Positions 3,001 to 36,024 of a stretch of DNA of 64,000 bases are shown one piece after another. Each line of letters opens with the position of its first letter. The stretch's first letter is position 1. The notes under the pieces are model-generated. The model saw only the letters and a program-made list of their open reading frames with translations, had not been told where the DNA came from and did no database searches. Source of the stretch: an uncultured Bacteroidales bacterium. GTDB lineage: Bacteria > Bacteroidota > Bacteroidia > Bacteroidales > P3. The DNA lies in assembly GCA_900314925.1 (NCBI GenBank), contig OMXC01000005.1, positions 34,346-98,345 on the forward strand. Reading direction: 5' to 3'. Both the position numbers and the translations under genes were made by a program.

Positions 3001-4508
3001 AACTGAGCTTCAAGAATAGCAGCATTGCCCATAGGGACATGTACTGCCATCTGGTCACCATCGAAGTCTGCATTGAAACCAGTACACACCAGCGGGTGCA
3101 GACGAATAGCCTTTCCCTCTACGAGCTTCGGTTGGAAAGCCTGTATACCAAGACGGTGGAGCGTAGGTGCACGGTTCAGCAGAATTGGATGTCCCTTTAA
3201 GATGTTCTCCAGTATTTCCCATACGACGGCCTCCTTACGGTCGACAATCTTCTTAGCGCTCTTGACGGTCTTCACCAGGCCACGCTCAAGAAGCTTACGA
3301 ATGATATACGGCTTAAAGAGTTCTGCGGCCATATCCTTGGGCAGACCGCATTCATGCATCTTCAACTCGGGGCCGACGACGATAACCGAACGACCGGAAT
3401 AGTCGACACGCTTACCAAGCAGGTTCTGACGGAAACGGCCTTGCTTACCCTTCAAGGCATCGGAGAGCGACTTGAGGGCACGGTTGCTTTCATTCTTTAC
3501 ACTGGAAACCTTACGGCTGTTATCAAACAGCGAGTCGACAGCTTCCTGCAACATACGCTTTTCATTACGCATGATGACCTCCGGAGCCTTAATCTCCACG
3601 AGACGTTTCAGACGATTGTTACGTATGATGACACGACGATACAACTCATTTATGTCAGATGTTGCAAAACGATTGCCGGCCAGCGGAACGAGCGGACGCA
3701 AATCGGGAGGGATGACAGGAATTATATTCATGATCATCCACTCAGGACGGTTGTCCATGCCGCGAGCCTGCATAGTACGCTGTGACTCTCTGAAAGATTC
3801 AATAACATTCAGGCGCTTCAATGCATCCTGTTTGCGAGCGACAGCTGTTGCATGAGAGGCTTCGGCGCGCAACTCATAGCTCAGTCTATCAAGATCGAGC
3901 TCAGAGAGCAACGTATACAAAGCCTCCGCTCCCATACCGGCAATAAACTTGTCGGGGTCGCTATCTGGCAACTGTGCATTATCGGCAGGCAGAGAATCCT
4001 GAATGAGATAATAATCCTCCTCACTGAGCAGGTCAAGTTTCTGTACCGGCATCTCATTGAGCATAGCCTTACCAGGCTGAAGCACAATGTATTTTTCATA
4101 GTATATAACCTGATCCAGCTTCTTGGAAGGAATGTTAAGCAGAGTTCCTATCTTGTTTGGCAAAGAGCGGAAGAACCAAATATGAGCAACGGGAACAACA
4201 AGCTCAATATGTCCCATACGTTCGCGACGTACTTTTTTCTCGGTCACTTCAACGCCGCAACGGTCACAAACTATCCCTTTATAACGGATACGTTTGTATT
4301 TACCGCAATGACATTCCCAGTCTCTGGTGGGACCGAAAATACGCTCGCAGAACAGGCCATCACGCTCTGGCTTAAATGTGCGATAGTTTATGGTTTCAGG
4401 CTTCGTCACCTCGCCATAGGAGCGGCGCTTGATTGATTCTGGCGACGCAAGGCTAATGGTGATAGCATTGAAATCGGTTTTTAACTGAGTTTCTTGTTTA
4501 AAAGCCAT
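33..4508 (-). CDS. rpoC: DNA-directed RNA polymerase subunit beta'
   Basis: 1491-aa ORF. It has the zinc-binding [23 protein letters not shown] segment and the catalytic NADFDGD motif, and lies directly downstream of rpoB. Confidence 0.98.
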
Positions 4509-4535
4509 GTTCTCTTTATTCTTATTTGGAACCTA

Positions 4536-7500
4536 TTAATCAAATGTTACCTCAAGACCAAGGCCACGGAGTTCGTGAACGAGGACATTGAAAGATTCGG
4601 GAATGCCAGGAACGGGCATGTTGTCACCCTTGACAATAGCCTCATATGCCTTGGCACGACCCATGACATCATCACTCTTCACCGTAAGCACCTCCTGAAG
4701 GACATGCGATGCACCATAAGCCTCGAGAGCCCATACCTCCATCTCACCAAAACGCTGACCACCAAAGTTGGCTTTACCACCGAGCGGCTGCTGCGTGATG
4801 AGTGAGTACGGACCAATGGAACGAGCGTGCATCTTGTCATCAATCATATGATGCAGCTTGAGGTAGTAGATATAGCCAACAGTAGCAGGCTGGTCAAAGC
4901 GCTCACCGGTCTCGCCGTCGTAGAGGTAGGTACGGCCATTCTCAGGCAGTCCTGCTTCACGCATGTAGCCATTGATCTGTTCCAGAGTGGCACCGTCGAA
5001 GATAGGCGTCTTAAAGCGTTTACCCAGTTTCTTACCTGCCCAGCCAAGGACTGTTTCGTATATCTGTCCAAGATTCATTCGCGAAGGCACACCAAGAGGA
5101 TTGAGGACAATGTCAACAGGTGTACCATCAGCCAAGAATGGCATATCCTCAGCACGTACAATCTTTGAAACAATACCCTTGTTACCATGACGACCAGCCA
5201 TTTTGTCACCTATGCGCAGCTTGCGTTTCATAGCGATATAAACCTTGGCCATCTGAACAATTCCGCTGGGCAGGTCATCACCGACGGTTAAGGCAAACTT
5301 ATTGCGCAGGAAACGACCGTTAATCTCACGGAATTTGATATTGTAATTGTTCAACAACTCTTTTATAAGAGCATTGGTCTCCTTATCAGTAGTCCATTTG
5401 TTGGGGCTCACCTCAGTGTAGTCAATAGCCTTGAGGGTTTTGGCTGTAAACTTGACCTTCTTGGGAATAAGTTCCTCACGATGATTTGTATAGACACCAT
5501 TGGAAACCTTACCGTTCAAAATCACCAACAACTGGGCGATAAGTTTTTCCTTCAACTCCTCGCACTCAAAACGGAACTCTTCCTCGGGCTTTGCCAACAA
5601 CTCTTTCTCTTTGGCACGAGCTTTACGGTCACGCACCACGCGAGCAAAAAGCTTCTTGTCGATAACTACACCATGCATTGAAGGCGGCACTTTGAGGGAT
5701 GCATCCTTGACATCTCCTGCTTTTTCACCAAAGATTGCACGCAGAAGTTTCTCTTCAGGCGTAGGATCAGACTCACCCTTCGGAGTTATCTTACCAATAA
5801 GGATGTCACCTTCCTTGACCTCAGCTCCAATACGGATTATACCGTTTTCATCAAGGTCCTTGGTAGCATCGTTGCCAACATTGGGAATGTCACGAGTGAG
5901 CTCTTCATTGCCACGCTTGGTCTCACGTACCTCAAGTGTGAACTCCTCAACATGGACCGATGTGTAGATATCCTCACGAACCACACGCTCGGAGATAACA
6001 ACAGCATCCTCAAAGTTATAACCCTTCCATGGCATGAATGCGACCATCATATTGCGACCCAAGGCAAGTTCACCTCCCTGTGTAGCATATCCTTCGCATA
6101 GTACCTGACCTTTTTTTACCTTGTCGCCCTTCTTCACAATAGGACGCAAGTTGATGGCGGTGGAGTGATTTGTACGCTGATATTTTGTCAGCTTATATTC
6201 TTTAATATCATCATCGAACGAGACTAAACGCTCTTTCTCGGTACGGTTGTGGCGGATAACGATCTTGGTGGAGTCGACATACTCGACAACACCGTCTGCT
6301 TCCGCATTAAGCAACACACGACTATCATGAGCCACAGCTTCCTCGATACCTGTTCCAACAATGGGTATTTCGGGGTTGAGCAGAGGCACAGCCTGACGCA
6401 TCATGTTCGAACCCATCAACGCACGGTTCGCGTCATCATGCTCAAGGAATGGGATGAGTGATGCAGCAATAGATGCAATCTGGTTTGATGCAATGTCAAT
6501 AAGGTCAATCTCCTCAGGCGCAACGATGGGGAAGTCTGCCTGACGACGTGCTTTGACACGCGGCACAGTGATATGTCCTTCTTCATCCTGCGGCGTGGTA
6601 GCTTGTGCCACAGTTTTGTTTTCCTCAGCTTCAGCCGACAGGTATACCGGTGGCTCGTTGAGCATTACCTGTCCGTTGACGACACGCTGATACGGAGTCT
6701 CTATAAATCCAAGCTCGTTAATCCTGGCATAGACACATAGTGAGGAGATAAGACCAATATTAGGACCTTCAGGTGTCTCAATGGTGCAGAGACGACCATA
6801 GTGAGTATAGTGGACATCACGAACCTCGAAGCCTGCACGCTCACGAGACAGACCGCCAGGACCAAGAGCAGAGATACGACGTTTATGCGTCAATTCTGCC
6901 AAAGGATTGGTCTGATCCATAAATTGGCTCAACTGGTTGGTGCCAAAGAATGAATTGATGACCGAAGACAACGTCTTGGCGTTGATAAGCTCTGTCGGCG
7001 AGAAAAGCTCGTTATCGCGCACATTCATACGCTCACGTATCGTACGACTCATTCGAGCGAGTCCAACGCCAAACTGGTTAGACAACTGCTCGCCTACAGT
7101 ACGAATACGACGGTTCGACAAGTGGTCAATATCGTCAACCTCTGCCTTTTGGTTGATGAGTTCAACCAAATATTTGATAATTGAGGTGATATCTTCTTTT
7201 GTAAGGACACGCACATTGTCGGGAACATCAAGCCCGAGTTTTGTGTTAATTCTATAACGTCCTACATCACCTAAATCATAACGTTTCTCAGAGAAGAATA
7301 ACTTCTCAATAATGCTACGTGCCGTCTCTTCATCTGGCGGCTCGGCATTACGCAACTGCCTATAAATGTACTCACAAGCTTCTTTAGCATTGTTGGCAGT
7401 ATCTTTTTTGAGGGTATTGTAGATTACTGAATAATCAATACCGTCCTTGTCCTCTGTCTTGATAAGAATTGACTTCACATCAAGCGAGAGAATCTTTTCT

Positions 7501-13043: not shown

Positions 13044-13159
13044 TTTAATACGTATTAAATGTTAACAAATACTATAATTTCACGTTTAACGAGGGCGTGC
13101 CCTACGGCTTGCGTCCTCTTGTTTTTCTTTCTCCCTTGCCGTTTCCGGCAAAAAAAGAG

Positions 13160-13231
13160 AGCCACAGACGAGAGTCGGACTCGTGACCTCTTCCTTACCA
13201 AGGAAGCGCTCTACCACTGAGCTACTGCGGC
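13160..13231 (-). tRNA. tRNA-Thr (anticodon GGT)
   Basis: Reverse complement GCCGCAGTAGCTCAGTGGTAGAGC..CCTTGGTAAGG..GGTCACGAGTCCGAC..CTGTGGC. Cloverleaf with anticodon loop UUGGUAA. Confidence 0.9.
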
Positions 13232-13316
13232 TTGCTGTTACTCACTCTCTCTTTTGAGTACCCTTTCTCTTTGAAAGCGGGGCTTTGTGTTCTCTTCTGT
13301 CTCACCGCTTTTGTTG

Positions 13317-13389
13317 AGCGGAAGACGGGGCTCGAACCCGCCACCTATAGCTTGGAAGGCTATCGCTCTACCAAATGAGCTACTTCCGC
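13317..13389 (-). tRNA. tRNA-Gly (anticodon TCC)
   Basis: Reverse complement GCGGAAGTAGCTCATTTGGTAGAGC..GCCTTCCAAGC..GGTTCGAGCCC..CTTCCGC. Confidence 0.9.
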
Positions 13390-13411
13390 TTTCTGAAGTA
13401 TTGGTATTTCG

Positions 13412-13493
13412 TGGGGGAGGGTGGACTCGAACCACCGAACTCTTCCGAGGACAGATTTACAGTCTGTTGCAATTGCCGCTATGCGACTCCCCC
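13412..13493 (-). tRNA. tRNA-Tyr (anticodon GTA)
   Basis: Reverse complement GGGGGAGTCGCATAGCGG..AGACTGTAAATCT.. followed by a long variable arm, then ..GGTTCGAGTCC..CTCCCCC. Confidence 0.9.
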
Positions 13494-13537
13494 TTTATGT
13501 TTGTCCGACTGCTCAGCATCGAGAGCGCCGGACCACG

Positions 13538-13610
13538 AGCCGATGAAGGGACTCGAACCCCCGACAGGCTGATTACAAATCAGCTACTCTACCAACTGAG
13601 TTACATCGGC
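13538..13610 (-). tRNA. tRNA-Thr (anticodon TGT)
   Basis: Reverse complement GCCGATGTAACTCAGTTGGTAGAG..CTGATTTGTAATCAG..GGTTCGAGTCC..CATCGGC. Confidence 0.9.
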
Positions 13611-14580: not shown

Positions 14581-14636
14581 TATTCACTATCCACTATCCA
14601 CTATTCACTATCCACTATCCACTTCTCACTTCCTCC
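14581..14636. repeat. 7-bp tandem array (TATCCAC/TATTCAC, ~8 units; 21-bp super-unit x2)
   Basis: tattcac tatccac tatccac tattcac tatccac tatccac ttctcac ttcctcc. The array abuts and overlaps the recombinase stop codon. Confidence 0.9.
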
Positions 14637-15522
14637 TGCTCCTCGGGTGCGCATGCTTGTACTCCTCTTTCAGGTGCTCGCGCGTGACGTGGGTGTACAC
14701 CTCCGTGGTGGCGAGGTTCTCGTGCCCCAGCAGCTCCTTGATGGCCTGTATGTTGCCTCCCTCGGCCAGGATATGCGTGGCGAACGAGTGGCGGAACACA
14801 TGCGGCGACACGCGGTCGGCGTTGCTCAGGCCTGCCATGTACTTGCGCACGATGTTGTACACCATCGCCGCGCTCACCGGCTTCCCCTTGGCGTTGACGA
14901 AGAGCCGTTCGGTCTCACCCACCGTCTGCCTCTTTAACGCAATATAGTCGGAAATATTGTGTGCCAACTCAATTTCTATCGGCACCACCCTCTCTTTGTT
15001 GCGTTTGCCGAGCACCTTTATCGTCAGCGCCCCCAGGTCCACGGAGCCCTCGCGGAGGGCTGCCAGCTCGCTGCGCCGCATGCCTGTCTCGTAGAGCATG
15101 CGCAGCATCAGGGCGTCGCGACGCCCCGTGAAGTCGGTGCCGAAGAGGCCTTCGTCGTACAGGTGCTCCGTCTCGCTCTCCTTGAAGAACACCGGCAGGT
15201 GCTTGGGCTGGCGCGGAGGCGACACCTTGGCCATAAGGTCGGCCTCCAGGAACCCGCTGCGGCGCAGCCACCGCAGCCAGCTGCTCACCGACGACAGGCG
15301 GCGGCGCACCGTCCCAGCGGCCTCGCCGGCACCGAGGTGCTCCATCTGCCAGCCCCGGATGTCGCGTGCCGACAGGTCGTCCAGCTCCGTCACCTCCAAC
15401 GGCAGCAGGTAAGCCTGCAGGTCGCGCAGGTCACCCTCGTAGTTGCGCACCGTCCCAGCCGCCATGCGGCGCTCAACGGCGATATAATCAACAAAACGGT
15501 CTATGGCTTCAGCTATTTTCAT
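14626..15522 (-). CDS. Tyrosine site-specific recombinase (XerC/XerD-like)
   Basis: The C-terminal catalytic region contains HVFRHSFATHIL and LGHENLATTEVYTHV (R..H-x-x-R..Y). I place the start at MKIAEAID (15522) because the longer ORF start at 15564 would overlap the upstream ATPase gene. Confidence 0.85.
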   Translation of the reverse strand: MKIAEAIDRFVDYIAVERRMAAGTVRNYEGDLRDLQAYLLPLEVTELDDLSARDIRGWQMEHLGAGEAAGTVRRRLSSVSSWLRWLRRSGFLEADLMAKVSPPRQPKHLPVFFKESETEHLYDEGLFGTDFTGRRDALMLRMLYETGMRRSELAALREGSVDLGALTIKVLGKRNKERVVPIEIELAHNISDYIALKRQTVGETERLFVNAKGKPVSAAMVYNIVRKYMAGLSNADRVSPHVFRHSFATHILAEGGNIQAIKELLGHENLATTEVYTHVTREHLKEEYKHAHPRSRRK

Positions 15523-15526
15523 GTCC

Positions 15527-16654
15527 TTAAAGCCGCTTGAGCCACAAGTCCATAAAACGGTCATATACTATGTAACCGTCGTTCAGCCTATACACAAGTT
15601 CCTTGTCGAGAAGTGTCTCAAGCGCAGCTTTAACACTACTTGCTCCCATAAGCCTGTATTTCCCCAGAAACGCCTTACCCGTCAACTCTTTGGCAACGCC
15701 CTCCTTTGCGATAGCTTTGAGCAGCGCAAACTGATTGGCGCTCAGGAACTGCGTCAGGCTCTCATACTGCGGAGCCTTCCCCGCCGTCACCGACATCACT
15801 GTGTCGCGCAGCTGTTCCATGGCGTCCACTCTTTTGTACCCTTCATACAACCTGTTCAATACTGACTGTACATACCATGTATATCCGTCAAATAATGTAT
15901 ACAACTCATGGAACACACACTCGTCAAGTCCGCCACCCCTAGCCTCAAAGAATCCTTTGGCAAACAAGTAGTATGTCTCTTCATCCAGTGGTCCTAAGCT
16001 CAGTATGTCAGTACTTTGGTAGAACGGTCGCTGTGGCGACAGGAACATCTCCGACATCATGTGTTGCTTGCTGCCTGAGAATATAAAATGAATGTTCCTC
16101 ATGAACTGTATGTGAGACCTGAGCAGCGCTTCTGTTCCTGTTTCTGGATAATATGCTATCTGCTGGAACTCATCTATGGCCACAAAAACCTCTTTTCCCA
16201 GACGGTTCAACTGTGTGAGAATGCCTTTCAGCGACATCTCTGACTGTGCCGGGTCGATATTCACCGTCACATTGGGCATACCTGTTATGCTGTCTATGCC
16301 CACCACCGGCCTTAAGGCTCCGAAAACATCCAACATCCTTTTCCCCAACGTTCTGCCTTTCGATAGCGCATCACTCAACACCGCCGAGCCGAGCATATTG
16401 ACCAGTTCATGCTGATTTTTGGTCGGGAAAATATCTATATATATGCATATAGCATCTTTATTCTCACTTTTAATCTTGTGGAAAACATTCCAAATAAGCC
16501 CCGTTTTACCCAATCTTCTAGGTGAAATAAGTGTAATATTTCGTCCGTTATACAGCGTTGACATTACTGTTTTAGTCTCTTCCTCACGGCCGCAAAAGAA
16601 TTCTGGGCTTTCGTAACCCTGACAAATAAAGGGATTTATAATCTTTTTTTTCAT
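15527..16654 (-). CDS. AAA-type ATP-binding protein (archaeal-ATPase/DUF234-like)
   Basis: 375 aa. Walker A is SPRRLGKTGL and Walker B-like is FVAIDEFQ. The architecture is typical of the widespread Bacteroidales ATP-binding protein family. Confidence 0.7.
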   Translation of the reverse strand: MKKKIINPFICQGYESPEFFCGREEETKTVMSTLYNGRNITLISPRRLGKTGLIWNVFHKIKSENKDAICIYIDIFPTKNQHELVNMLGSAVLSDALSKGRTLGKRMLDVFGALRPVVGIDSITGMPNVTVNIDPAQSEMSLKGILTQLNRLGKEVFVAIDEFQQIAYYPETGTEALLRSHIQFMRNIHFIFSGSKQHMMSEMFLSPQRPFYQSTDILSLGPLDEETYYLFAKGFFEARGGGLDECVFHELYTLFDGYTWYVQSVLNRLYEGYKRVDAMEQLRDTVMSVTAGKAPQYESLTQFLSANQFALLKAIAKEGVAKELTGKAFLGKYRLMGASSVKAALETLLDKELVYRLNDGYIVYDRFMDLWLKRL

Positions 16655-16718
16655 ATCTCGGTCTTTTATAGTTGCTTATGCTGCATTACGTAAATCTTGT
16701 AACGTAAATTATGTAATG

Positions 16719-16726
16719 CAAAGATA
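16719..16726 (-). promoter_or_regulatory. -7 promoter box (TATCTTTG) upstream of the ATPase gene
   Basis: The minus strand reads gttgTATCTTTGcat about 65 nt upstream of the start at 16654. Confidence 0.55.
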
Positions 16727-16780
16727 CAACTTTTTTCCCACATAACGCAAAAAATGTGCCACCCACATTGTGAACCACAC

Positions 16781-16821
16781 AAAAAACAGCGGCGGGAGGC
16801 TCACCAAAAAACCTCCCGCCG
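16781..16821 (-). terminator. Rho-independent terminator after the lipoprotein/S8 operon
   Basis: The minus strand has CGGCGGGAGG..loop..CCTCCCGCCG followed by CTGTTTTTTG. Confidence 0.75.
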
Positions 16822-16846
16822 ACAAAATTTACACGCCTACGATAGT

Positions 16847-17539
16847 CTACTTATATTCATGAATGTGACGCACAAAACCCGGGGTGATAAAAACAGTATC
16901 CAACACTCTTCTTTCCTTTATAATATTACATGCAGCCACAGCACTTACTAAGGGATGATTACCAACATACAATCTATAGGAAGGAATACTATGTTGAAGA
17001 CTATATCCCAACGAATTGGCAATACTTTCAATTATTCTTTCCTCTTCTTCATGACCTGGTGAAACCATTACTTGAACTCCGGGACCATAGAGCTCCAGAC
17101 TTCCTCCATTTCTATATACCGGCTCTATTGCCAAGATACCTTCTACTCGCTTTAATTCTTCAATAGCAGTAACCCTATTTCTATTCTCAAACAAAACAAC
17201 CATTCCTTTCAGAGAGTCTGTCTGGCTAACAGGAAAACTCACAGGCAATACTGGACAATAACCACTTGGAAGATTATTGAGAGGATTCTCACCATAATGA
17301 TAATAAACACATAACATACTATCAATACGATTGAGGTCTCTTCGCTCATCAACATCATACAAATAGGTGTCATCACCCCTCGTGAGGGCGCCCTCCGGCC
17401 AGCCGTTGTTAGTCTGCGTGACAACTCTTGGGGTGTCCTTTACTGCATTTGCATCGTCCTTGCTGCAAGCCGACACCGCAACACTTACAATGATGGCAAG
17501 TACCGCCATGCTTAAAACTGTCTTTTTCATAATATTCAT
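16847..17539 (-). CDS. Hypothetical lipoprotein
   Basis: 230 aa with a signal peptide and lipobox (AVSAC). No recognisable family. Confidence 0.6.
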   Translation of the reverse strand: MNIMKKTVLSMAVLAIIVSVAVSACSKDDANAVKDTPRVVTQTNNGWPEGALTRGDDTYLYDVDERRDLNRIDSMLCVYYHYGENPLNNLPSGYCPVLPVSFPVSQTDSLKGMVVLFENRNRVTAIEELKRVEGILAIEPVYRNGGSLELYGPGVQVMVSPGHEEEERIIESIANSLGYSLQHSIPSYRLYVGNHPLVSAVAACNIIKERRVLDTVFITPGFVRHIHEYK

Positions 17540-17563
17540 GTTTTATGGTTAAACATCGGTGTT

Positions 17564-19969
17564 TCAGTACACCACTATTTTGTTCATCCCTATCATCTTG
17601 TCGCCAGCGTTGACGAAGACATAGTAATTGCCAGCCGGTCTTTCGCTAAGGTCCACCTCCTGGCTGGTGCCACGTAGCATCTCACGCACCACTACATTGC
17701 CATACATGTCGGTAATCACAAGCATTGCGTTCTGGGGCAATTCGTCAATGTCTATTCCTATGGTCGTATGGCCGTCCGTCGGGTTAGGTGTTGCATTTAT
17801 GCCCGGATGCGGTGGAAGTTCAGGGTCAATTATTACGTGAGGCTCCTCATAGTTTATATAGGTCTTCCCCGCTACCAGGCGGTTCCCCTCAACGAACATA
17901 TCAAAAGGAATGTTGTAACCATTATAATCGTGTATCTCGTTAGGATCATCACCTATCACAGCGGCGAAGGTGATATACCATGTCCCTGTCTGATTGGCAG
18001 GAAATATATTCCTCAAGTCAAGGGTGATGACAAACGTCTGACTGCCACCATTGCCGGCTATCGTCACCGGCGTCGTCGATGACGGCGTCAGATAGGTGCC
18101 GTAGGGGAACGACTGCGGCCATGTCAGCTGTTCTGTAGAATAGGTGTGGTAATACAGCTTCACGTCAGCCGGATCTATTGTGACGCTTGACGACCCGTAG
18201 TTGTGAAGCGTGACGTTCACATTGTACAACGAACCATACGACACCCTATCCACCTCATAGGTGTTCGTGGCATCTTTAGCTACAATGCTGGGGCTATTGA
18301 ACGTCGTGCTGTACGCCGTGGGCTCCACGCCATTGTCGCCACCGTTGTCCTTGACGACCAATCCAGGGGTGAGAGAAATGTCGCGTGCCATCTCAACAGC
18401 ACGAGCAGAATTTATCTCGCCATACCCAAGCTCAACATTCCATGTGCCATCGGGATGGTTGGCATAATTACCAAACGTATAGTCTGGCGACTTATACGCT
18501 GTGTGCTTCAATATCCAATCAACCTGTTCGCGAGTAAGGTCCGGGTTTGCAGAAAGCATCAATGCCACAACACCTGCCACATGTGCAGAAGCCACTCCTA
18601 CGACCCCCGATAGATTGCTGATAAAATAGTAATCGTATGAAGGGTATGAATCTGTTGTAAGTATATTTTCACCTGGTGCAACAATATCCAATTTACTTCC
18701 GTAACACGAATAATAACTTAAATCATGATCATCCCGTGTCGCTCCAACCACAATAAATCTATCGTCATAGTATGCTGGGTATACGATAGAATCGGACTGT
18801 CCTTTTCCTCCTGCCGAGAAAACAAAAATTGTTCCCTTACCATTTCTGCCATTGTTCAAAACATAATCGAGGGTATTATCCATTAAATAATTCTGATATT
18901 CAACACTCTCGCTAATTTCCGTATAATCCCATGGGCACAAAATAATGTCAACATTGCTGTTGGACAAAGCATAAGATACCGCGGTTACAAACATACTTAC
19001 AAAATCCTCATCCAACGTAATACCGCCGCCATAATATGTGCTGAAGAAACTAATATCAAACAAACTTGCCTTGGGGGCTATACCGGCAATGTCATTATTG
19101 CTATGATCCGAGAAAATAACTCCCGCCATTTGCGTTCCATGATGGCCATATATTTCTGACGGCATGGATATCAAGCCTGAATAAATATCAATAGAAGTAT
19201 GGGAGAGAGAATCAAACTCATAATGATTTGTATCCACACCATCATCAATCAGGGCAATCTTTACTCCATTACCGCGGATTCCTTCAGCCCATATATCATA
19301 CAAATCGGTTATTGACCATTGGTTCGATATCAGGTTGTCCGATGGCCCGGGGCTGTTGCTACGCTGCTGTGAATTGATATGGATGGTGTATACAATATTG
19401 GGAGCAACTCCTTTGAAAAGCCCTGTTTCACCATACACGATAGACATCTGAAGAGCATCACCTGCGTTTTTGTTTGTAGAAAGCCCATACCAATAGAAAT
19501 CATGTTCGACATCCTTCCAAAGCACACCATCGTATGTCACCATGGTCTGTTCTGCCAAGTTCTTTAGAATACTCGTATCTGACAACGAATTAAGTTGTAC
19601 AAAAAATCTATTAGATATAAGCGTACTCCCTCTTTCTCCGATTACTGGCTCTACGTCAAAGACATATGGTAATCTCTTAAGGTCGGCAATAAATGTCTCA
19701 TAATTGTTATTTCCGGTGCTTATTACAAAGGCATACAGCGAATCAGCTTTCTGCTCATTCATACGCATCTCCTTTTCAACAGTGTATATGCGATTTATTT
19801 CATCTAAGCTAATCTGGGCCTTATTGAAATACACAAGCAAAGCAGTTGTATTGACCGAGATTTCCTTTCGTGCACCATCATAGAAGTAATATCCTGTTTT
19901 GGTGCTCTGTGCATGTGCGCATAATGCGCATAATGCAACAAATGTAAATAAAAGCAATGTCTTTTTCAT
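17564..19969 (-). CDS. Subtilisin-like (S8 family) protein with T9SS C-terminal sorting domain; catalytic Ser and oxyanion Asn motifs degenerate
   Basis: 801 aa with a signal peptide. The Asp motif is IALIDDGVD and the His motif is HGTQMAGVI. AAGN is replaced by SAGG, and GTSMAxPHVAG by VVGVASAHVAG. The C-terminus (LVITDMYGNVVV...NYYVFVNAGDKMIGMNKIVVY) resembles a Por secretion tail. Confidence 0.75.
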   Translation of the reverse strand: MKKTLLLFTFVALCALCAHAQSTKTGYYFYDGARKEISVNTTALLVYFNKAQISLDEINRIYTVEKEMRMNEQKADSLYAFVISTGNNNYETFIADLKRLPYVFDVEPVIGERGSTLISNRFFVQLNSLSDTSILKNLAEQTMVTYDGVLWKDVEHDFYWYGLSTNKNAGDALQMSIVYGETGLFKGVAPNIVYTIHINSQQRSNSPGPSDNLISNQWSITDLYDIWAEGIRGNGVKIALIDDGVDTNHYEFDSLSHTSIDIYSGLISMPSEIYGHHGTQMAGVIFSDHSNNDIAGIAPKASLFDISFFSTYYGGGITLDEDFVSMFVTAVSYALSNSNVDIILCPWDYTEISESVEYQNYLMDNTLDYVLNNGRNGKGTIFVFSAGGKGQSDSIVYPAYYDDRFIVVGATRDDHDLSYYSCYGSKLDIVAPGENILTTDSYPSYDYYFISNLSGVVGVASAHVAGVVALMLSANPDLTREQVDWILKHTAYKSPDYTFGNYANHPDGTWNVELGYGEINSARAVEMARDISLTPGLVVKDNGGDNGVEPTAYSTTFNSPSIVAKDATNTYEVDRVSYGSLYNVNVTLHNYGSSSVTIDPADVKLYYHTYSTEQLTWPQSFPYGTYLTPSSTTPVTIAGNGGSQTFVITLDLRNIFPANQTGTWYITFAAVIGDDPNEIHDYNGYNIPFDMFVEGNRLVAGKTYINYEEPHVIIDPELPPHPGINATPNPTDGHTTIGIDIDELPQNAMLVITDMYGNVVVREMLRGTSQEVDLSERPAGNYYVFVNAGDKMIGMNKIVVY

Positions 19970-19975
19970 AGTTAC

Positions 19976-20809
19976 TTAGTTTCTGGTATATATATAGGGC
20001 ATAATATTATAACCATTATAGTGGAATACCAACATTGTATCCTGGCTCCACTCATATGCACGGAACTTCAAACTTTTATAAACATTCGGTTCATATACTG
20101 AGAAGAACATGTCTGATACAATCTCATACGGGATAGTTTCGTTTGGGGTAGTATTGTTTACTATTGTTATAGTATCACTCGTTATTCGCAACATAGGACT
20201 GCCACTATTTAATGGTGTACCCGGCTCTATCTTATAGAAGTCGTATATCTGTTCCCATGTCATTGTCAGGATACCGTACTGGGGGTCGAGATCCACTCCG
20301 GCCGCCCCGGGAGCCAGAGTGACAACACGGTCCATGCTCTTCGTCCATTCGCCTGGAAGATATTGCTGCAGCGGTTGATAGACAAAGCCGTTGGGCGCGA
20401 CGCCTGTCGGCGGTGCCAGCTTGCTGGCGACGCAGATGTACTTGCTTTCCTCTTCGTCGTACCACATCGTGACGTCATAGCCTTCGTTGAAGCGGGCGTC
20501 GACCCAAGCCATGGCGGCGTCGCGGCTCTCGGTGGCGTACATCTGGCGCTCCTTGGCGTAGTTGGTGCCGCTGCCGTGGGCTATGTTGACGAGGTGTCCC
20601 TCGGCGGCGCGGTCCAGGCACTCGCCGAGCAGCGCCTGCCACTCCGCCGTGCCCTCGACGGTGACATGCTGACGGGTGTTGTCGATGCTGTATTCCACCG
20701 CGCGCACGCTGTTCACCGGCGCCACACGTGTGGCCTCTTCCTTCTGGCATCCTGCCGCCAGCACCATCATCGCGGCGGCCAGGACCATTGCTATTGTTCT
20801 CTTTTTCAT
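19976..20809 (-). CDS. Hypothetical lipoprotein
   Basis: 277 aa with a signal peptide and lipobox (LAAGC). Lies 6 nt upstream of the S8 gene. Confidence 0.6.
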   Translation of the reverse strand: MKKRTIAMVLAAAMMVLAAGCQKEEATRVAPVNSVRAVEYSIDNTRQHVTVEGTAEWQALLGECLDRAAEGHLVNIAHGSGTNYAKERQMYATESRDAAMAWVDARFNEGYDVTMWYDEEESKYICVASKLAPPTGVAPNGFVYQPLQQYLPGEWTKSMDRVVTLAPGAAGVDLDPQYGILTMTWEQIYDFYKIEPGTPLNSGSPMLRITSDTITIVNNTTPNETIPYEIVSDMFFSVYEPNVYKSLKFRAYEWSQDTMLVFHYNGYNIMPYIYTRN

Positions 20810-31868: not shown

Positions 31869-32360
31869 TTATAAGATTTTCAGCGCTATCGCCGCGCAGG
31901 CCTCGGCGTCGGCCAGAGCGTGGTGGTGGTTCTCCAGACAGTAGCCGCAGGCTTCGCTGACGGTGTGCAGCTGGTGGTTGGGCAGGCCTTTGAGCTTGCG
32001 GCGCGAGGCCCGCAGGGTGTCGTAGAAGACATACCCCGGCCAGTCCATTCGGTACACCTGCATCACCGCCCGCAGGCAGCCCTCGTCGAACATGGCGTTG
32101 TGGGCCACCAGCGGCAGCCCCTCTATGAGCGGTTCTATCTTGTGCCACACCGTCGGGAACACCTCGGCGCCGTCGGTGTCATCGTGGCAGAGCCCGTGCA
32201 CCCGCTGGCAGAACCAGGCGTAGTAGTTCGGCTCCGGCTGAATGAGGCTGTAGAACGTATCCACCACCTCGCCCCCGCGCACCACGACCACCCCCACGCT
32301 GCACACACTGGAGCGCTCCCCGTTGGCCGTCTCAAAGTCTATCGCCGCAAAGTCCTGCAT
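31869..32360 (-). CDS. DnaQ-like DEDDh 3'-5' exonuclease (DNA pol III epsilon family)
   Basis: Exo I is AAIDFET, Exo II is HNAMFDEGCL and Exo III is HHALADAEA. I place the start at MQDFAAIDFE. The tracked ORF start at 32393 is a TTG lying inside the -7 promoter box. Confidence 0.85.
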   Translation of the reverse strand: MQDFAAIDFETANGERSSVCSVGVVVVRGGEVVDTFYSLIQPEPNYYAWFCQRVHGLCHDDTDGAEVFPTVWHKIEPLIEGLPLVAHNAMFDEGCLRAVMQVYRMDWPGYVFYDTLRASRRKLKGLPNHQLHTVSEACGYCLENHHHALADAEACAAIALKIL

Positions 32361-32390
32361 ACTACCTTTATTCTTGTCTGCTTTTCCTTG

Positions 32391-32398
32391 CAAAGATA
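32391..32398 (-). promoter_or_regulatory. -7 promoter box (TATCTTTG) of the exonuclease gene
   Basis: The minus strand reads gttcgTATCTTTGcaagg about 30 nt upstream of the ATG at 32360. Confidence 0.6.
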
Positions 32399-32510
32399 CG
32401 AACTTTTTCTCATATTATGCAAATAAATTATGCAAATTGAATAATGTAATTTGCATAATTATTATATACACATGTTATTCAAAAGTTTAAACCTTTCACA
32501 TGGTCGCCAT

Positions 32511-32561
32511 TTAAAGATATTTACTCATTATCTCCTGTATCTCGCCATGCATGTCGGCACG
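32511..32561 (-). pseudogene. Orphan 3'-end fragment of a WYL-regulator gene
   Basis: 32516-32561 matches 33524-33569 at 39/46 nt. It translates ...RADMHGEIQEIMSKYL*, compared with ...RSDMRGEIQEMMNKYQDDNE* in the intact WYL gene. No similarity is seen upstream of the fragment. Confidence 0.75.
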
Positions 32562-33506
32562 ATTGGGTGTGGCATTTGCATAATTTGCACATATGACCTT
32601 ATAGTGGTTGTCGCAAAATATGCGACAACCACTAATCCTCCTCATGTGAACATTCCAGCAACCGTTGCATTTTTTTCGACACATCCAACCTGCCTCATAT
32701 AATAACTTGTGCATTTTTGCACAGGTTGCATGACAAATAACACGCAAATAATGTGTGTTATTCTAACCATCAAGTTCTCTTTGACATACAAGCTGTTAGT
32801 GGCAGACTTATTTTATTGGTATTTCTGTAACTCAATATTGCATGGTTTTCCGGCCATTCCACTTCATCTACCATATTATTAGCATTTTATTATCGCGAAA
32901 ATATTCGTAATAATTTTTTTTCGTTAGATATAATTAGCCATAATTTCGCGTATTCGAAATTTGCTGTAAAATTACACAATTTTTTGAATATGGTAAAATA
33001 TTTTTCACAGAATCACGGAGTTTTCGCTGCCAGATCCACGCATTCTATCAGACTTCATAAGAGGCACGGCCTACGACTAACGTGAAGCAAACGCATTTCA
33101 TAAACCTGCTTTCTTCGTGACTTCTTCGTGGGTTCTTTGTGCCTTCTTTGCAAGCAAAGCAATTACACTGGAAATCAACCAGATGACACCTGCACCAACA
33201 CTAACACACAAACAATTCATTTTCAGCACAATCAGGCCATGACCTTTCGGCGATCCTTCGGCGGTCTCTTTACATTTTGTCAAACCACGTATCATTTTTC
33301 TCTCTATTGACAAAAATTTGTGTATCTTTACAGTCGAAATTCGCGTCACAAATGACATAAAAATCGAATAAGATGCAGATAGAAAGAAGCTGTGATTTGC
33401 TGATTTAGGTTGTCACTTTTGCGTCCTGCGACTGGATCAAGTTGACGGGTTAGTGATTACCGACCGTTTTTTGTTGTCATCCGTGAACTTCTTACCATAA
33501 ACACAA

Positions 33507-34409
33507 TTATTCATTGTCATCCTGATATTTGTTCATCATCTCCTGTATCTCGCCGCGCATGTCTGAACGTAGACTTTCGGGTTGGAGCACCTCGACGGTG
33601 CGGCCAAGGGAGAGGAGTTTCTGTTTGAAATCGTAGGTGGGACGCACACGCAGAGAGAAAATGGAATACTCCTCGGTGCGCTTCAGTTCGTGCTGACTGC
33701 TATGCAGGGGCAACGAACGCAGGTAGTTGGCCTGATAGGCGTTGACCTTCAGTCGTATGGACTCTACAGGCGTATCATCCACAATGATGCCGTAGACACC
33801 CTCGAACATCTTCCTCAGGACGAACTTCGGGTCGCGTTTATAGGTCTCATCTTGCAACTCCACCTTCGTCATGCGGTCGAGGGCGAAGATACGGTACTCG
33901 CCGTCGCGTCGGGCGATGAGGTACCAGCGGCGCTCGAACATCTTTAGAGCATACGGCTGCACGCCGCTGTAGCTGTAGGGCGACTCGCTCCAGTAGGGTT
34001 GATACGTGAAGTTAAGCGTGCGCAGCTCTTTCAACGCCTCCAGCAGCATCGGCAGCATCCTGCTGTCCGTAGGTTCCACCAGGACATATTGCGCTGCCTC
34101 GCGGCTGTCGGCGACGACATGGTTCACCGCTATTGAGTCCATCATCCACTTGCGGAAATACTCCCTGCCGCCATCGTCGGCCAAACGGTAGCGGTACTGA
34201 CCGCCATCCACGTAGCACTCAATCTCGATGCCGAAAAAGTCCATAATCTCGATGCGGTAACGGTGGAAGGAGCGGCGCGCGAAAGCGCCCTCCTCATGCA
34301 GCTCCTCCGTAGCGTTCCAGCGGTCGCCAATCTGCTCAAGCGTCAAGCCCCTATCGCCCGCCCGCATCAGCGTCCCCACCAGCCAGGTATATTTCTTCAG
34401 TACGTTCAT
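33507..34409 (-). CDS. WYL domain-containing transcriptional regulator (N-terminal HTH + WYL)
   Basis: 300 aa. The N-terminal wHTH-like region is LTLEQIGDRWN, and the central WYL motif is MFERRWYLIARRDGEYRIFALDRM. Lies 7 nt downstream of the zinc-ribbon gene. Confidence 0.8.
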   Translation of the reverse strand: MNVLKKYTWLVGTLMRAGDRGLTLEQIGDRWNATEELHEEGAFARRSFHRYRIEIMDFFGIEIECYVDGGQYRYRLADDGGREYFRKWMMDSIAVNHVVADSREAAQYVLVEPTDSRMLPMLLEALKELRTLNFTYQPYWSESPYSYSGVQPYALKMFERRWYLIARRDGEYRIFALDRMTKVELQDETYKRDPKFVLRKMFEGVYGIIVDDTPVESIRLKVNAYQANYLRSLPLHSSQHELKRTEEYSIFSLRVRPTYDFKQKLLSLGRTVEVLQPESLRSDMRGEIQEMMNKYQDDNE

Positions 34410-34416
34410 AAAAACA

Positions 34417-34680
34417 TTATTCCCAAAATGAAGTATCTGTTATGCTTTGCCTAACATTTTCGATTTCAACCCCACAAATCGGACAAATAATTGGCACTTC
34501 TTTGTCGAAGTACCCGCCACATTCACATTTGACATTGCAGTATTCAAGAAATCTGTCCGTTGTCAGCAATTCTTTGCCACACTTGTCGCAATGTAATACA
34601 TCAACCTCTTTTCCAGAGCCATCACGCCATTCAAATTTATCGTTACAGTGAGGGCATTCCACATTGTAACAAATCCCCAT
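34417..34680 (-). CDS. Small double zinc-ribbon protein
   Basis: 87 aa with four Cys pairs: CPHC, CDKC, CEC and CPIC. Its ATG overlaps the upstream stop (TAATG). Confidence 0.7.
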   Translation of the reverse strand: MGICYNVECPHCNDKFEWRDGSGKEVDVLHCDKCGKELLTTDRFLEYCNVKCECGGYFDKEVPIICPICGVEIENVRQSITDTSFWE

Positions 34681-35288
34681 TATTTCTCAACAAGTATTTT
34701 TACCCACCCTGCATCGCCACAGAGTTTATTTTCATCAATGCCAACATTATTTTGAGGATAACCTCGGAATGTCTGTGCACCTTGAACCAATCCCTTGCCC
34801 GTAATCCAACAGAGAGGAAGACCGACTGGCTGCGCATCTCCTTTGGCCTTCCCTACATTGTTCCAGTACCACCTATTGCTATCTTCAATTAGTTTTATCA
34901 CCTCTTCTTTTGTGAGCATGTATAAATCATATTTTATTTCTTCACCATCTGTTTTAATATGTACAAACACCCAAGGGCCAACAAACCTACTTTTCCACTC
35001 GTTATCTTTTACCCACTGTTTGTTTTTCCTGACTATTATGTTTCCTTTGGTGTCCGAGATAAGACCTATTGGGAAATTGGGCTCGTCCGAAGCACTGGAT
35101 TTGACTTGTATAAACTTCGGTTCAAGAGTCTTGGGATTTACTGCAAGAACATCCACACCTTTATAATTGGGGTTGGTGGCATTAAGATTGAAAGCATCCC
35201 ACCCCATTTCTGTTAGTTTCAGTATTACAGCAGTTTCGCCGAGTTTTCCAACTCTGGACTTGTCTCCTTTAAGTTCTTTATAGTCCAT
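34680..35288 (-). CDS. PD-(D/E)xK (Hjc/restriction-endonuclease-like) nuclease-fold protein with uncharacterised C-terminal domain
   Basis: 202 aa. The N-terminal ~65 aa, GKLGETAVILKLTEMGWDAF...YKGVDVLAV...FIQVKS, follow the E...D...(E/Q)xK pattern of Hjc-like nucleases. I do not recognise the C-terminal half. Assignment is by eye only. Confidence 0.5.
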   Translation of the reverse strand: MDYKELKGDKSRVGKLGETAVILKLTEMGWDAFNLNATNPNYKGVDVLAVNPKTLEPKFIQVKSSASDEPNFPIGLISDTKGNIIVRKNKQWVKDNEWKSRFVGPWVFVHIKTDGEEIKYDLYMLTKEEVIKLIEDSNRWYWNNVGKAKGDAQPVGLPLCWITGKGLVQGAQTFRGYPQNNVGIDENKLCGDAGWVKILVEK

Positions 35289-35355
35289 TTTATATTATAT
35301 TGTTACTCTAATTTCCAATAATATAACGACAAAACAAGTTTATTATTATTGTGTT

Positions 35356-35919
35356 TTAAAACAGGCAATTCTTACGTTCCCAGCGTTTTGCTTTGTTCCA
35401 ATAAAGAGTAATAGGTTCGTCGGGATTGGAACGCCAATGTTTGCGCTCAATCTTATCAAGTGCGGTGTCATCATACTGATACTCGTCTGACACAATCCAA
35501 CATGTGTATATTTCGTGTTCTCCAAAACGATTATACCGGGTATTACATGTTTGTTTTACACATTTCTTCAGTTCCTCGGATAGGAGCCTGATTAACTCAT
35601 CATTATCGAGGCACTTTATTCTGCTTGACATTGGGTTGAAGTTGTTCATTGGTTCATCACCCATTATCATCCGCCAAATATAGCGGAATATAACCCAGTG
35701 GATACGACTGCGGTAAATCTCACTTCGGTCCTCGGCGTAGCGTTTAATAACCCGCTTTAGGCTTCCTCCCCTTTGTACAAAACCACCAAGAATCACTAAT
35801 TTTTCATCCAATGTTTTATAATTCCACTCATGGCCACAGTCGTCCCAGAAATCGCGTGTGGCAAGACATGCTTCATAATGTTTTAGATCGCAGTCAAAAG
35901 GTTTCATGTTATCTCTCAT
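35356..35919 (-). CDS. Hypothetical protein (Trp/Cys/Arg-rich, no recognisable family), first gene of the WYL-linked operon
   Basis: 187-aa ORF, AT-rich, preceded by a -7 promoter box. Confidence 0.55.
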   Translation of the reverse strand: MRDNMKPFDCDLKHYEACLATRDFWDDCGHEWNYKTLDEKLVILGGFVQRGGSLKRVIKRYAEDRSEIYRSRIHWVIFRYIWRMIMGDEPMNNFNPMSSRIKCLDNDELIRLLSEELKKCVKQTCNTRYNRFGEHEIYTCWIVSDEYQYDDTALDKIERKHWRSNPDEPITLYWNKAKRWERKNCLF

Positions 35920-35945
35920 GATGTTTATCTATTAGTTTCCGACTG

Positions 35946-35953
35946 CAAAAATA
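35946..35953 (-). promoter_or_regulatory. -7 promoter box (TATTTTTG) of the four-gene operon
   Basis: The minus strand reads gttgTATTTTTGcagtcgg about 27 nt upstream of the ATG at 35919. Confidence 0.55.
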
Positions 35954-36024
35954 CAACAAAGGTATGCCACATCGTGACACACCACAACTATCGTCATCCT
36001 GAGCCTCTCCGACTCCGGTACGTA

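Follow-up and report, generated by a model that had tools for sequence, protein, structure and literature searches.

We analysed a window of 64,000 nucleotides from an uncultured Bacteroidales bacterium (assembly GCA_900314925.1, contig OMXC01000005.1, positions 34,346 to 98,345 of the forward strand), and within it a minus-strand locus of four genes, called here A, B, C and WYL, with a palindrome-promoter unit in front of them and an exonuclease gene beyond them. Compared with its relatives (designated below by L numbers), the locus is one version of a variable array, probably WYL-switched, that is horizontally exchanged and confined to uncultured rumen and gut Bacteroidales. Its features, with their positions in the window, are:

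35961-35983, minus strand: 23-bp palindrome GGTGTGTCAC-GAT-GTGGCATACC, found by pattern match and by alignment of upstream regions
35946-35953, minus strand: -7 promoter box TATTTTTG of the Bacteroidetes type, read directly, with TA..TTTG invariant in 28 units
35356-35919, minus strand: gene A, 187 amino acids (aa), by translation of its open reading frame (ORF)
34680-35288, minus strand: gene B, 202 aa, by ORF translation
34417-34680, minus strand: gene C, 87 aa, by ORF translation
33507-34409, minus strand: WYL gene, 300 aa, with WYL and WCX domains, by ORF translation and Pfam
32389-33506, strand not applicable: low-GC non-coding segment, containing array pieces found by comparison with relatives
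31869-32360, minus strand: DEDDh (DnaQ/RNase T-like) 3'-5' exonuclease gene, by Pfam RNase_T (E 5.2e-16) and the NCBIfam DnaQ-type exonuclease domain (E 4.9e-41)

A preliminary description made from the sequence alone had presented A, B, C and WYL as a compact four-gene operon. The genes themselves are real: the four minus-strand ORFs were reproduced from the sequence, and the TAATG overlap (in which the B stop and the C start share one base), the 7-nt gap between C and WYL and the promoter box were all read directly. The motifs pointed out in the translations (GKLGETAV, GWDAF, YKGVDVLAV and FIQVKS; CPHC, CDKC, CEC and CPIC; RRWYLIARR) are present, and the G+C counts in the 60-nt samples (18, 23, 35 and 37) were reproduced exactly. 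What does not stand is a fixed four-gene system, since the content between A and WYL is highly variable and B is optional. Two features, the 23-bp palindrome and the 1.1 kb of low-GC DNA, go beyond that first reading. Over whole genes, the G+C fraction is 0.41, 0.41 and 0.40 for A, B and C, 0.56 for WYL, 0.64 for the exonuclease gene and 0.61 for the gene upstream of the locus (DUF1295 by Pfam); at third codon positions the values are 0.43, 0.37 and 0.38, then 0.75, 0.88 and 0.83, in the same order.

Related neighbourhoods came from three sources, namely homologues of B, homologues of A together with a scan of GTDB species genomes, and homologues of WYL, and all loci were compared by a uniform ORF and BLAST survey. 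There are about 60 related loci, all in uncultured rumen or gut Bacteroidales; the 18 from the genome scan are all in metagenome-assembled genomes (MAGs). Their conserved order is A, optionally B, optionally a 225-267-aa protein (F4 or F11), C, variable cargo, WYL and usually a DEDDh exonuclease. A and WYL lie in one array wherever the locus is long enough for both, at no fewer than three chromosomal sites. Every WYL locus examined begins with A, which every complete array contains and which is the sole cargo gene never missing. B occurs in about six of about 20 distinct A-WYL arrays; without B, the slot after A may be taken by a 274-aa protein that weakly matches GIY-YIG (L013, L024, L034, L048 and L066) or by F4, whose match to Brig1, an anti-phage glycosylase, is short and weak, and in places the slot is empty. 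C is retained in most A-WYL loci, with or without B, and is missing in three arrays. Among the variable cargo are an AAA_14/DUF4143 ATPase, WG-repeat proteins and pairs of ~115-aa proteins; a RhuM-Fic protein is very often there too, and the cargo is rich in nucleases (PD-(D/E)xK, GIY-YIG, PLD and DUF4268). The smallest arrays consist of A, WYL and the exonuclease (L025) or of A and WYL (L077, whose contig ends shortly past WYL). The lack of an integrase noted earlier was confirmed for the locus itself, and the arrays are not integron-like cassette arrays, as no recombinase gene was found in or beside any array examined.

The gene beyond WYL had been taken for a dnaQ-like housekeeping flank. 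This does not fit the comparison, in which the WYL gene usually has the DEDDh exonuclease gene as its 3' partner: the latter lies immediately downstream on the same strand in 11 loci (usually with an overlap of ~8 nt), is separated from WYL by an insertion in two and is convergent to it in two. The exonuclease motifs DxE, D and Hx4D are seen in the window translation as DFET, FDEG and HHALADAE, and the window gene is preceded by a -7 box, TATCTTTG, at 32391-32398.

Identities along the array are discordant. The window DNA covering A, B and C (35983 to ~34481) is 80-82% identical to that of L001, L002 and L035, which are located at other chromosomal sites, although the WYL proteins of these three loci are only 61-64% identical to ours. 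At the same site as the window, L029, L030 and L033 have WYL proteins 88-89% identical and exonucleases 96-99% identical, but their A proteins are only 55-58% identical and they lack B. In five comparisons homology starts at 35981-35984, the outer edge of the palindrome. The low-GC segment between WYL and the exonuclease gene (32389-33506) is absent in most relatives, where the two genes overlap. Within it are the final 46 nt of a WYL gene (32516-32561), with 87-91% identity to relatives, a 34-nt fragment of a RhuM/Fic gene (32600-32633), where a perfect 14-bp hairpin of RhuM/Fic origin spans 32602-32634, and intergenic pieces common to the L029 and L033 arrays. We take the segment to be a relic of an older array that the present A-B-C-WYL block displaced. 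On these alignments the cargo is horizontally exchanged and mosaic, and the discordant identities and the low-GC remnant uphold the earlier suggestion of recently acquired cargo next to a host-like regulator, which was essentially right about both the foreign composition of the cargo and its exchange.

Two smaller observations belong here. In L001 (6619-7803) and L002 (6059-7234), the first 30-50 nt of C are duplicated and F4 lies inserted between the copies, which hints at a specific mode of cassette insertion. Within the low-GC segment of the window, just upstream of the exonuclease -7 box, ATTATGCAAAT occurs four times at 32411-32587 (two direct, two inverted); the motif is loosely like the ATTATGCC...GGCATAAT palindromes of L022 and L024, and its repeats may be an operator for another regulator.

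Alignment of the regions upstream of A gave the palindrome, then exactly 7 nt, then TAnnTTTG. The palindrome core is TGYCAY-N3-RTGRCA; across 28 distinct units TGYCA/TGRCA is invariant, the outer positions vary, and TAnnTTTG always follows after 7 nt. The palindrome matches once in the 64-kb window, against 0.13 matches expected, and with a relaxed pattern the window and related loci together yield 33 units, of which only one is not on the same strand as the A-to-WYL operon. When 241 million metagenome records were scanned for the exact pattern, 44 sites were found on 36 contigs; A is the first downstream gene at 19 of the 44 sites, and WYL closes all seven contigs whose array reaches its end. 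The same palindrome-promoter unit also stands before an McrB-like and McrC pair (L027 and L059), a zinc-ribbon gene with two DUF262/HEC-06-like genes (L036), a PDDEXK_4 protein matching the PADLOC candidate PDC-S26 (L017) and several unknown genes. The promoter of A has no -33 TTTG at the proper distance, and the palindrome fills that place (matches from a sigma-70 promoter scan were disregarded, as that model is inapplicable to Bacteroidetes promoters). Directly after the -7 box, near the expected transcription start (35919-35945), GCAGTCGAAAA is kept in most units despite a diverged leader. The L017 island has further palindromes at 1534, 3123 and 3376, with McrBC and PDDEXK_4 genes in the same island.

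The WYL protein has a clear WYL domain (PF13280, E 2.6e-14, 53.4 bits against a cut-off of 21.8; PADLOC WYL model, E 2.5e-32) and a C-terminal WCX domain (PF25583, E 2.7e-12, 47.3 bits against a cut-off of 23.9). Its residues 1-110 are highly conserved and show a helix-turn-helix-like pattern by eye only; a winged helix-turn-helix is probable there. Regulators of the winged-helix-turn-helix, WYL and WCX build sense single-stranded DNA (ssDNA) and bind palindromes of ~20 bp (PMC11662680, PMC10853764). The family comprises ssDNA-activated activators, such as DriD and PafBC, and ssDNA-released repressors, such as CapW and BrxR, which carry an RWHVR motif (PMC11662680). With a family profile, the nearest solved relatives of the WYL-WCX part are DriD (E 2e-11) and PafBC (E 2e-8), whereas similarity to CapW (E 0.1) and BrxR (E 0.17) is marginal. 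RWHVR is absent from the protein, which has RRWYLIA(R/G) instead, with W162-Y163 invariant and L164 nearly so. By sequence, then, it is nearer the DNA-damage activators DriD and PafBC than BrxR and CapW. The idea that WYL acts as a defence-type switch is plausible from its context; the parallel with BrxR and CapW drawn alongside it is not supported.

The DriD box is a palindrome of ~21 bp, CGxC-N7-GxCG, with an AT-rich centre, and it is also found before driD itself (PMC10853764). Our palindrome has half-sites spaced as TGYC-N7-GRCA, which is the same geometry. Upstream of a B-C operon that lies outside the A/WYL frame, at L008 1400-1470, CTACGACAAGTTTTGACGTATG and TAGATTTG stand 7 nt apart, an exact fit to CGxC-N7-GxCG, and the 7-nt spacing of the other units is kept. 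This site suggests a family of WYL operators with differing half-sites but one promoter architecture. Given the proximity of the WYL protein to DriD, the DriD-box geometry and the exact fit in L008, the WYL protein probably binds the palindrome, which is its candidate operator; as to the sign of regulation, we lean slightly toward activation rather than de-repression. A variant palindrome in L022 and L024 was considered as covariation with a divergent WYL protein and judged weak, as the variants grade into the main type (ATG or GTG before the core).

The likeness to DriD of Caulobacter crescentus and PafBC of Actinobacteria thus covers the WYL and WCX domains, the canonical WYL motif, the palindrome with its 4-bp half-site cores and AT-rich 7-nt spacing, the presence of a site before the regulator's own transcription unit, and nuclease genes in the regulon. 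It ends at several points. Here the regulator is the last gene of the operon rather than the first; the genes under control vary, are low in GC, pass horizontally between genomes and include restriction-type systems; the half-sites differ at their outermost bases; the host belongs to the Bacteroidales, with -7/-33 promoters; and binding of DNA and ssDNA is a prediction. The CapW and BrxR defence systems (CBASS, BREX and other islands) offer a different comparison. As there, a WYL-family regulator adjoins defence-type genes, a palindrome overlaps the promoter, and induction by DNA damage or ssDNA would be the expected logic; the CapW-linked upec-117 CBASS also includes a 3'-5' exonuclease, Cap18. 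Apart from the missing RWHVR and the marginal similarity, our locus differs in having no CBASS or BREX core genes and in having its regulator gene 3' and co-directional, not divergent or upstream.

Gene A had been called unassignable to any family, and so it proved, for fold as well as sequence. Nothing matches it in Pfam, NCBIfam, PHROGs or PADLOC. Its AlphaFold2 (AF2) model (pLDDT 85) is mainly helical with one beta hairpin. Foldseek searches of PDB and BFVD with this model gave nothing at E<=0.001, and weak winged-helix-like matches, none reaching that threshold, were not used. An exhaustive profile search among 1.84 billion representative proteins found only 85 relatives. Longer A-like proteins show no known Pfam domain and no informative fusion partner, and in a cluster look-up none of the NCBI-held homologues bore a name. 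Residues 122-140, which form the hairpin, are hypervariable, with a column entropy of 2.29 bits against 1.01 elsewhere. In L031 (17832-19230) there is, besides A, a divergent A-like gene of 40% identity, which has a palindrome-promoter unit to itself and lies upstream of a DEDDh exonuclease gene; this operon is convergent to the main A-to-WYL array.

For B, a PD-(D/E)xK nuclease fold had been proposed, and the AF2 model, the top Foldseek matches and the invariant catalytic residues all support it. The model (pLDDT 88.5, pTM 0.87) has the core alpha-beta-beta-beta-alpha-beta fold, and its top matches in PDB are all PD-(D/E)xK proteins: I-Ssp6803I (E 2.7e-4), the SPARDA nuclease domain, EcoRV and Hjc. 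Among 14 B homologues E18, D31, D46 and Q61-V62-K63 are invariant; in the model E18 lies in helix 10-27, D46 just before strand 47-50, and Q61-V-K63 in strand 57-65. By predicted fold, B is therefore a PD-(D/E)xK nuclease. Its homologues form 15 clusters, all from metagenomes. The best sequence match is the YraN/UPF0102 family, but membership was rejected because the scores are below the cut-offs (NCBIfam 22.8 against 109 bits; Pfam 13.3 against 23.6 bits), and a B profile had no match among PDB sequences. Set beside the minimal PD-(D/E)xK nucleases (Hjc, YraN/UPF0102, I-Ssp6803I and the SPARDA domain), B shares the core fold, the helix-1 E, the strand-2 D and the strand-3 Q-x-K. It differs in falling below every sequence-family cut-off, with modest Foldseek TM-scores of 0.3-0.48, in having an extra conserved C-terminal part (W140-Y-W142, W161 and Y177-P178, invariant in the same 14 homologues), and in being paired or fused with a double zinc ribbon.

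That zinc-ribbon partner is C, whose earlier reading as two zinc ribbons is confirmed by four conserved cysteine pairs in the motifs CPxC, LHCDxCG, CxCGG and ICPxC. As with A and B, no Pfam, NCBIfam or PHROGs family scored above its cut-off for C. In L035 and L037-L040 the two genes form a single in-frame fusion, seen on more than 22 contigs, whose 292-aa product keeps all catalytic residues and cysteines; this argues that B and C work as one unit. B-C pairs are also found outside the A/WYL frame (L007 and L008), and in L012 B stands without C, beside HigB-like genes.

On balance we favour the reading that the array is a WYL-switched, ssDNA-responsive island of nuclease-rich, horizontally exchanged cargo, with a probable role against phages or DNA damage. 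The argument for defence is that the same palindrome-promoter unit drives restriction-type operons, that the cargo is rich in nucleases, and that it is variable and compositionally foreign. We infer a mechanism in which a dimeric, DriD-like WYL protein would bind the palindrome in the window and the identical units before neighbouring operons. Fragments of ssDNA from phage attack or DNA damage would bind the WYL domain and so switch on the promoter of A and its sister promoters. Once induced, B would cut DNA, with C as a partner or fused DNA-binding module, and A, never missing and with its hypervariable hairpin, might be the primary output or the specificity component. The co-transcribed DEDDh exonuclease could then trim the ssDNA signal and reset the switch.

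Several points weigh against this reading. Every source is a MAG or metagenome. No match to a named defence system was expected for A, B and C if the system is novel, and the PADLOC-DB 2.0 models indeed leave them unmatched, with no match for A and chance-level scores for B and C (E 0.0085-0.16); PAD_porph and WG repeats among the cargo are not obviously defensive. For the WYL protein, residues 1-110, where the helix-turn-helix would lie, had no profile match in Pfam or among PDB sequences, and the nearest characterised relatives govern DNA-damage responses, not defence. Binding of the palindrome by A instead of WYL would fit the co-occurrence equally well. The exonuclease gene in the window is 1.1 kb from WYL and has its own promoter box, and the exonuclease is absent at two of the three chromosomal sites (HAD/yidD-rnpA and oxaloacetate-decarboxylase/nitroreductase), which makes its link to the module frequent, not obligatory.

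The main rival explanation is an SOS-independent DNA-damage regulon of the DriD type, in which A, B, C and the exonuclease would be repair, tolerance or growth-arrest factors. It involves the same switch, is compatible with a defence role, and differs from the favoured reading only in biological role; we think it rather unlikely. The nearest relatives DriD and PafBC are activators of regulons with nucleases such as BapE, the WYL protein has RRWYLIA rather than the RWHVR of CapW and BrxR, and a promoter without -33 TTTG at the proper distance is what one would expect if it depended on an activator. A DnaQ-like exonuclease is the usual partner, the minimal loci L025 and L077 are just A and WYL with or without that exonuclease, and the A promoter of L017 directly follows a gene for a Y-family (IMS/DinB-type) polymerase (3713-4900). 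However, a housekeeping regulon should not be so variable, so low in GC and so freely exchanged; the families of A, B and C are tiny and belong to one clade only; and restriction genes (McrBC-like and DUF262-like) and a PADLOC candidate are under the same palindrome-promoter unit.

A more ambitious version of the defence reading can be imagined, and we regard it as unlikely. A would be the sensor or specificity subunit of a hitherto undescribed modular immune system whose effector slot is filled interchangeably by B (with its zinc ribbon), by a GIY-YIG nuclease or by a Brig1-like glycosylase; the island, including McrBC- and GmrSD-type restriction, would be switched on by the DriD-like WYL activator and reset by the exonuclease; and the hairpin-promoter units would serve as integrase-free joints for cassette exchange.

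A further objection concerns the palindrome itself, which could be a mere terminator or insulator hairpin at cassette boundaries, with WYL a passenger or the regulator of something else and the region a hotspot for accessory genes. The palindrome was called intrinsic-terminator-like in a scan (10-bp stem, 3-nt loop, T-rich tail), a co-directional gene precedes every palindrome site, and the outer stem pairs 3-21 and 4-20 co-vary symmetrically, a pattern that hairpin formation could account for as well (pairing in 86% of cells, compared with 78% in shuffles). The terminator-like call and the co-varying pairs count against a pure operator, and the palindrome may also have a terminator or insulator role, in addition or as an alternative. 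As the whole explanation this is very unlikely, for five core pairs keep the same sequence even where adjacent proteins share only 50-60% identity, which selection for a hairpin would not by itself explain; pairing often fails at the outer positions, as in the window, L026b and L036a; there is a single copy of the motif in 64 kb; in the loci examined it is confined to such arrays, all with WYL where the contig reaches the array end; and its geometry is that of the DriD box.

The one-base overlap of B and C, the recurrence of the pair outside the A/WYL frame and the HigB-like toxin gene adjoining B in L012 might suggest a toxin-antitoxin pair, nuclease toxin and zinc-ribbon antitoxin, hitch-hiking in the array. 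We find this hard to credit, as the 292-aa fusion in a widespread lineage would be unusual for a toxin and its antidote, and as C without B in most loci and B without C in L012 are at odds with the constant co-occurrence of a type II pair. Equally improbable is a remnant of a prophage or integrative element, to which the low GC and mosaic structure, one weak B-like match (32% identity) in an unannotated 5.5-kb 'Bacteriophage sp.' record, and the IS200-type transposase and ORF6N genes adjoining B-C in L008 could be attributed, but which is contradicted by the absence of integrase, structural and replication genes from the locus, by the lack of any relative of A in 50,697 phage records and of any match to the palindrome-promoter pattern in IMG/VR, and by the same internal array frame at conserved chromosomal sites.

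Defence hotspots of P2 and P4 (PMC9122126) resemble the favoured island in having conserved flanks around swappable, low-GC, nuclease-rich cargo, with frame and cargo discordant in identity. In contrast to those, the present locus is chromosomal rather than part of a phage or satellite, each cassette group has its own copy of one regulator's palindrome-promoter unit, and the frame genes A and WYL appear to be functional parts, not mere anchors. WYL-gated defence systems and WYL-driven damage regulons are already known. In the libraries and papers we searched, the following are undescribed: the placing of a DriD-like regulator last in a variable array, at its 3' end; the repetition of the regulator's (putative) operator-promoter unit before several cassettes; the constant first gene A; the B-C nuclease and zinc-ribbon unit; and the frequent DEDDh partner. 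The literature likewise held nothing specific on a pair of WYL and DEDDh exonuclease or on a WYL damage regulator in Bacteroides.

Known roles of WYL regulators are the gating of single defence systems (BREX, CBASS) or of DNA-damage regulons. Here a DriD-like WYL protein appears to govern a whole, rapidly exchanged island by way of a repeated palindrome-promoter unit. The host group is the Bacteroidales, in which little is understood of either the DNA-damage response or the inducible control of defence. The array also adds three uncharacterised families: A, with no detectable fold relative; B, a new minimal nuclease by its predicted fold; and C, its zinc-ribbon partner. If the operator prediction is true, the palindrome-promoter motif would be a search handle for new defence genes in rumen and gut metagenomes.

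Elsewhere in the window, 18 kb from the locus, a tyrosine recombinase-like ORF (14626-15564) lies in a second low-GC stretch (14626-20000, G+C ~0.43) beside a tRNA cluster (13159-13610). This stretch also holds a 375-aa ATPase-like ORF and an 801-aa subtilase-like ORF, and may be a separate island.

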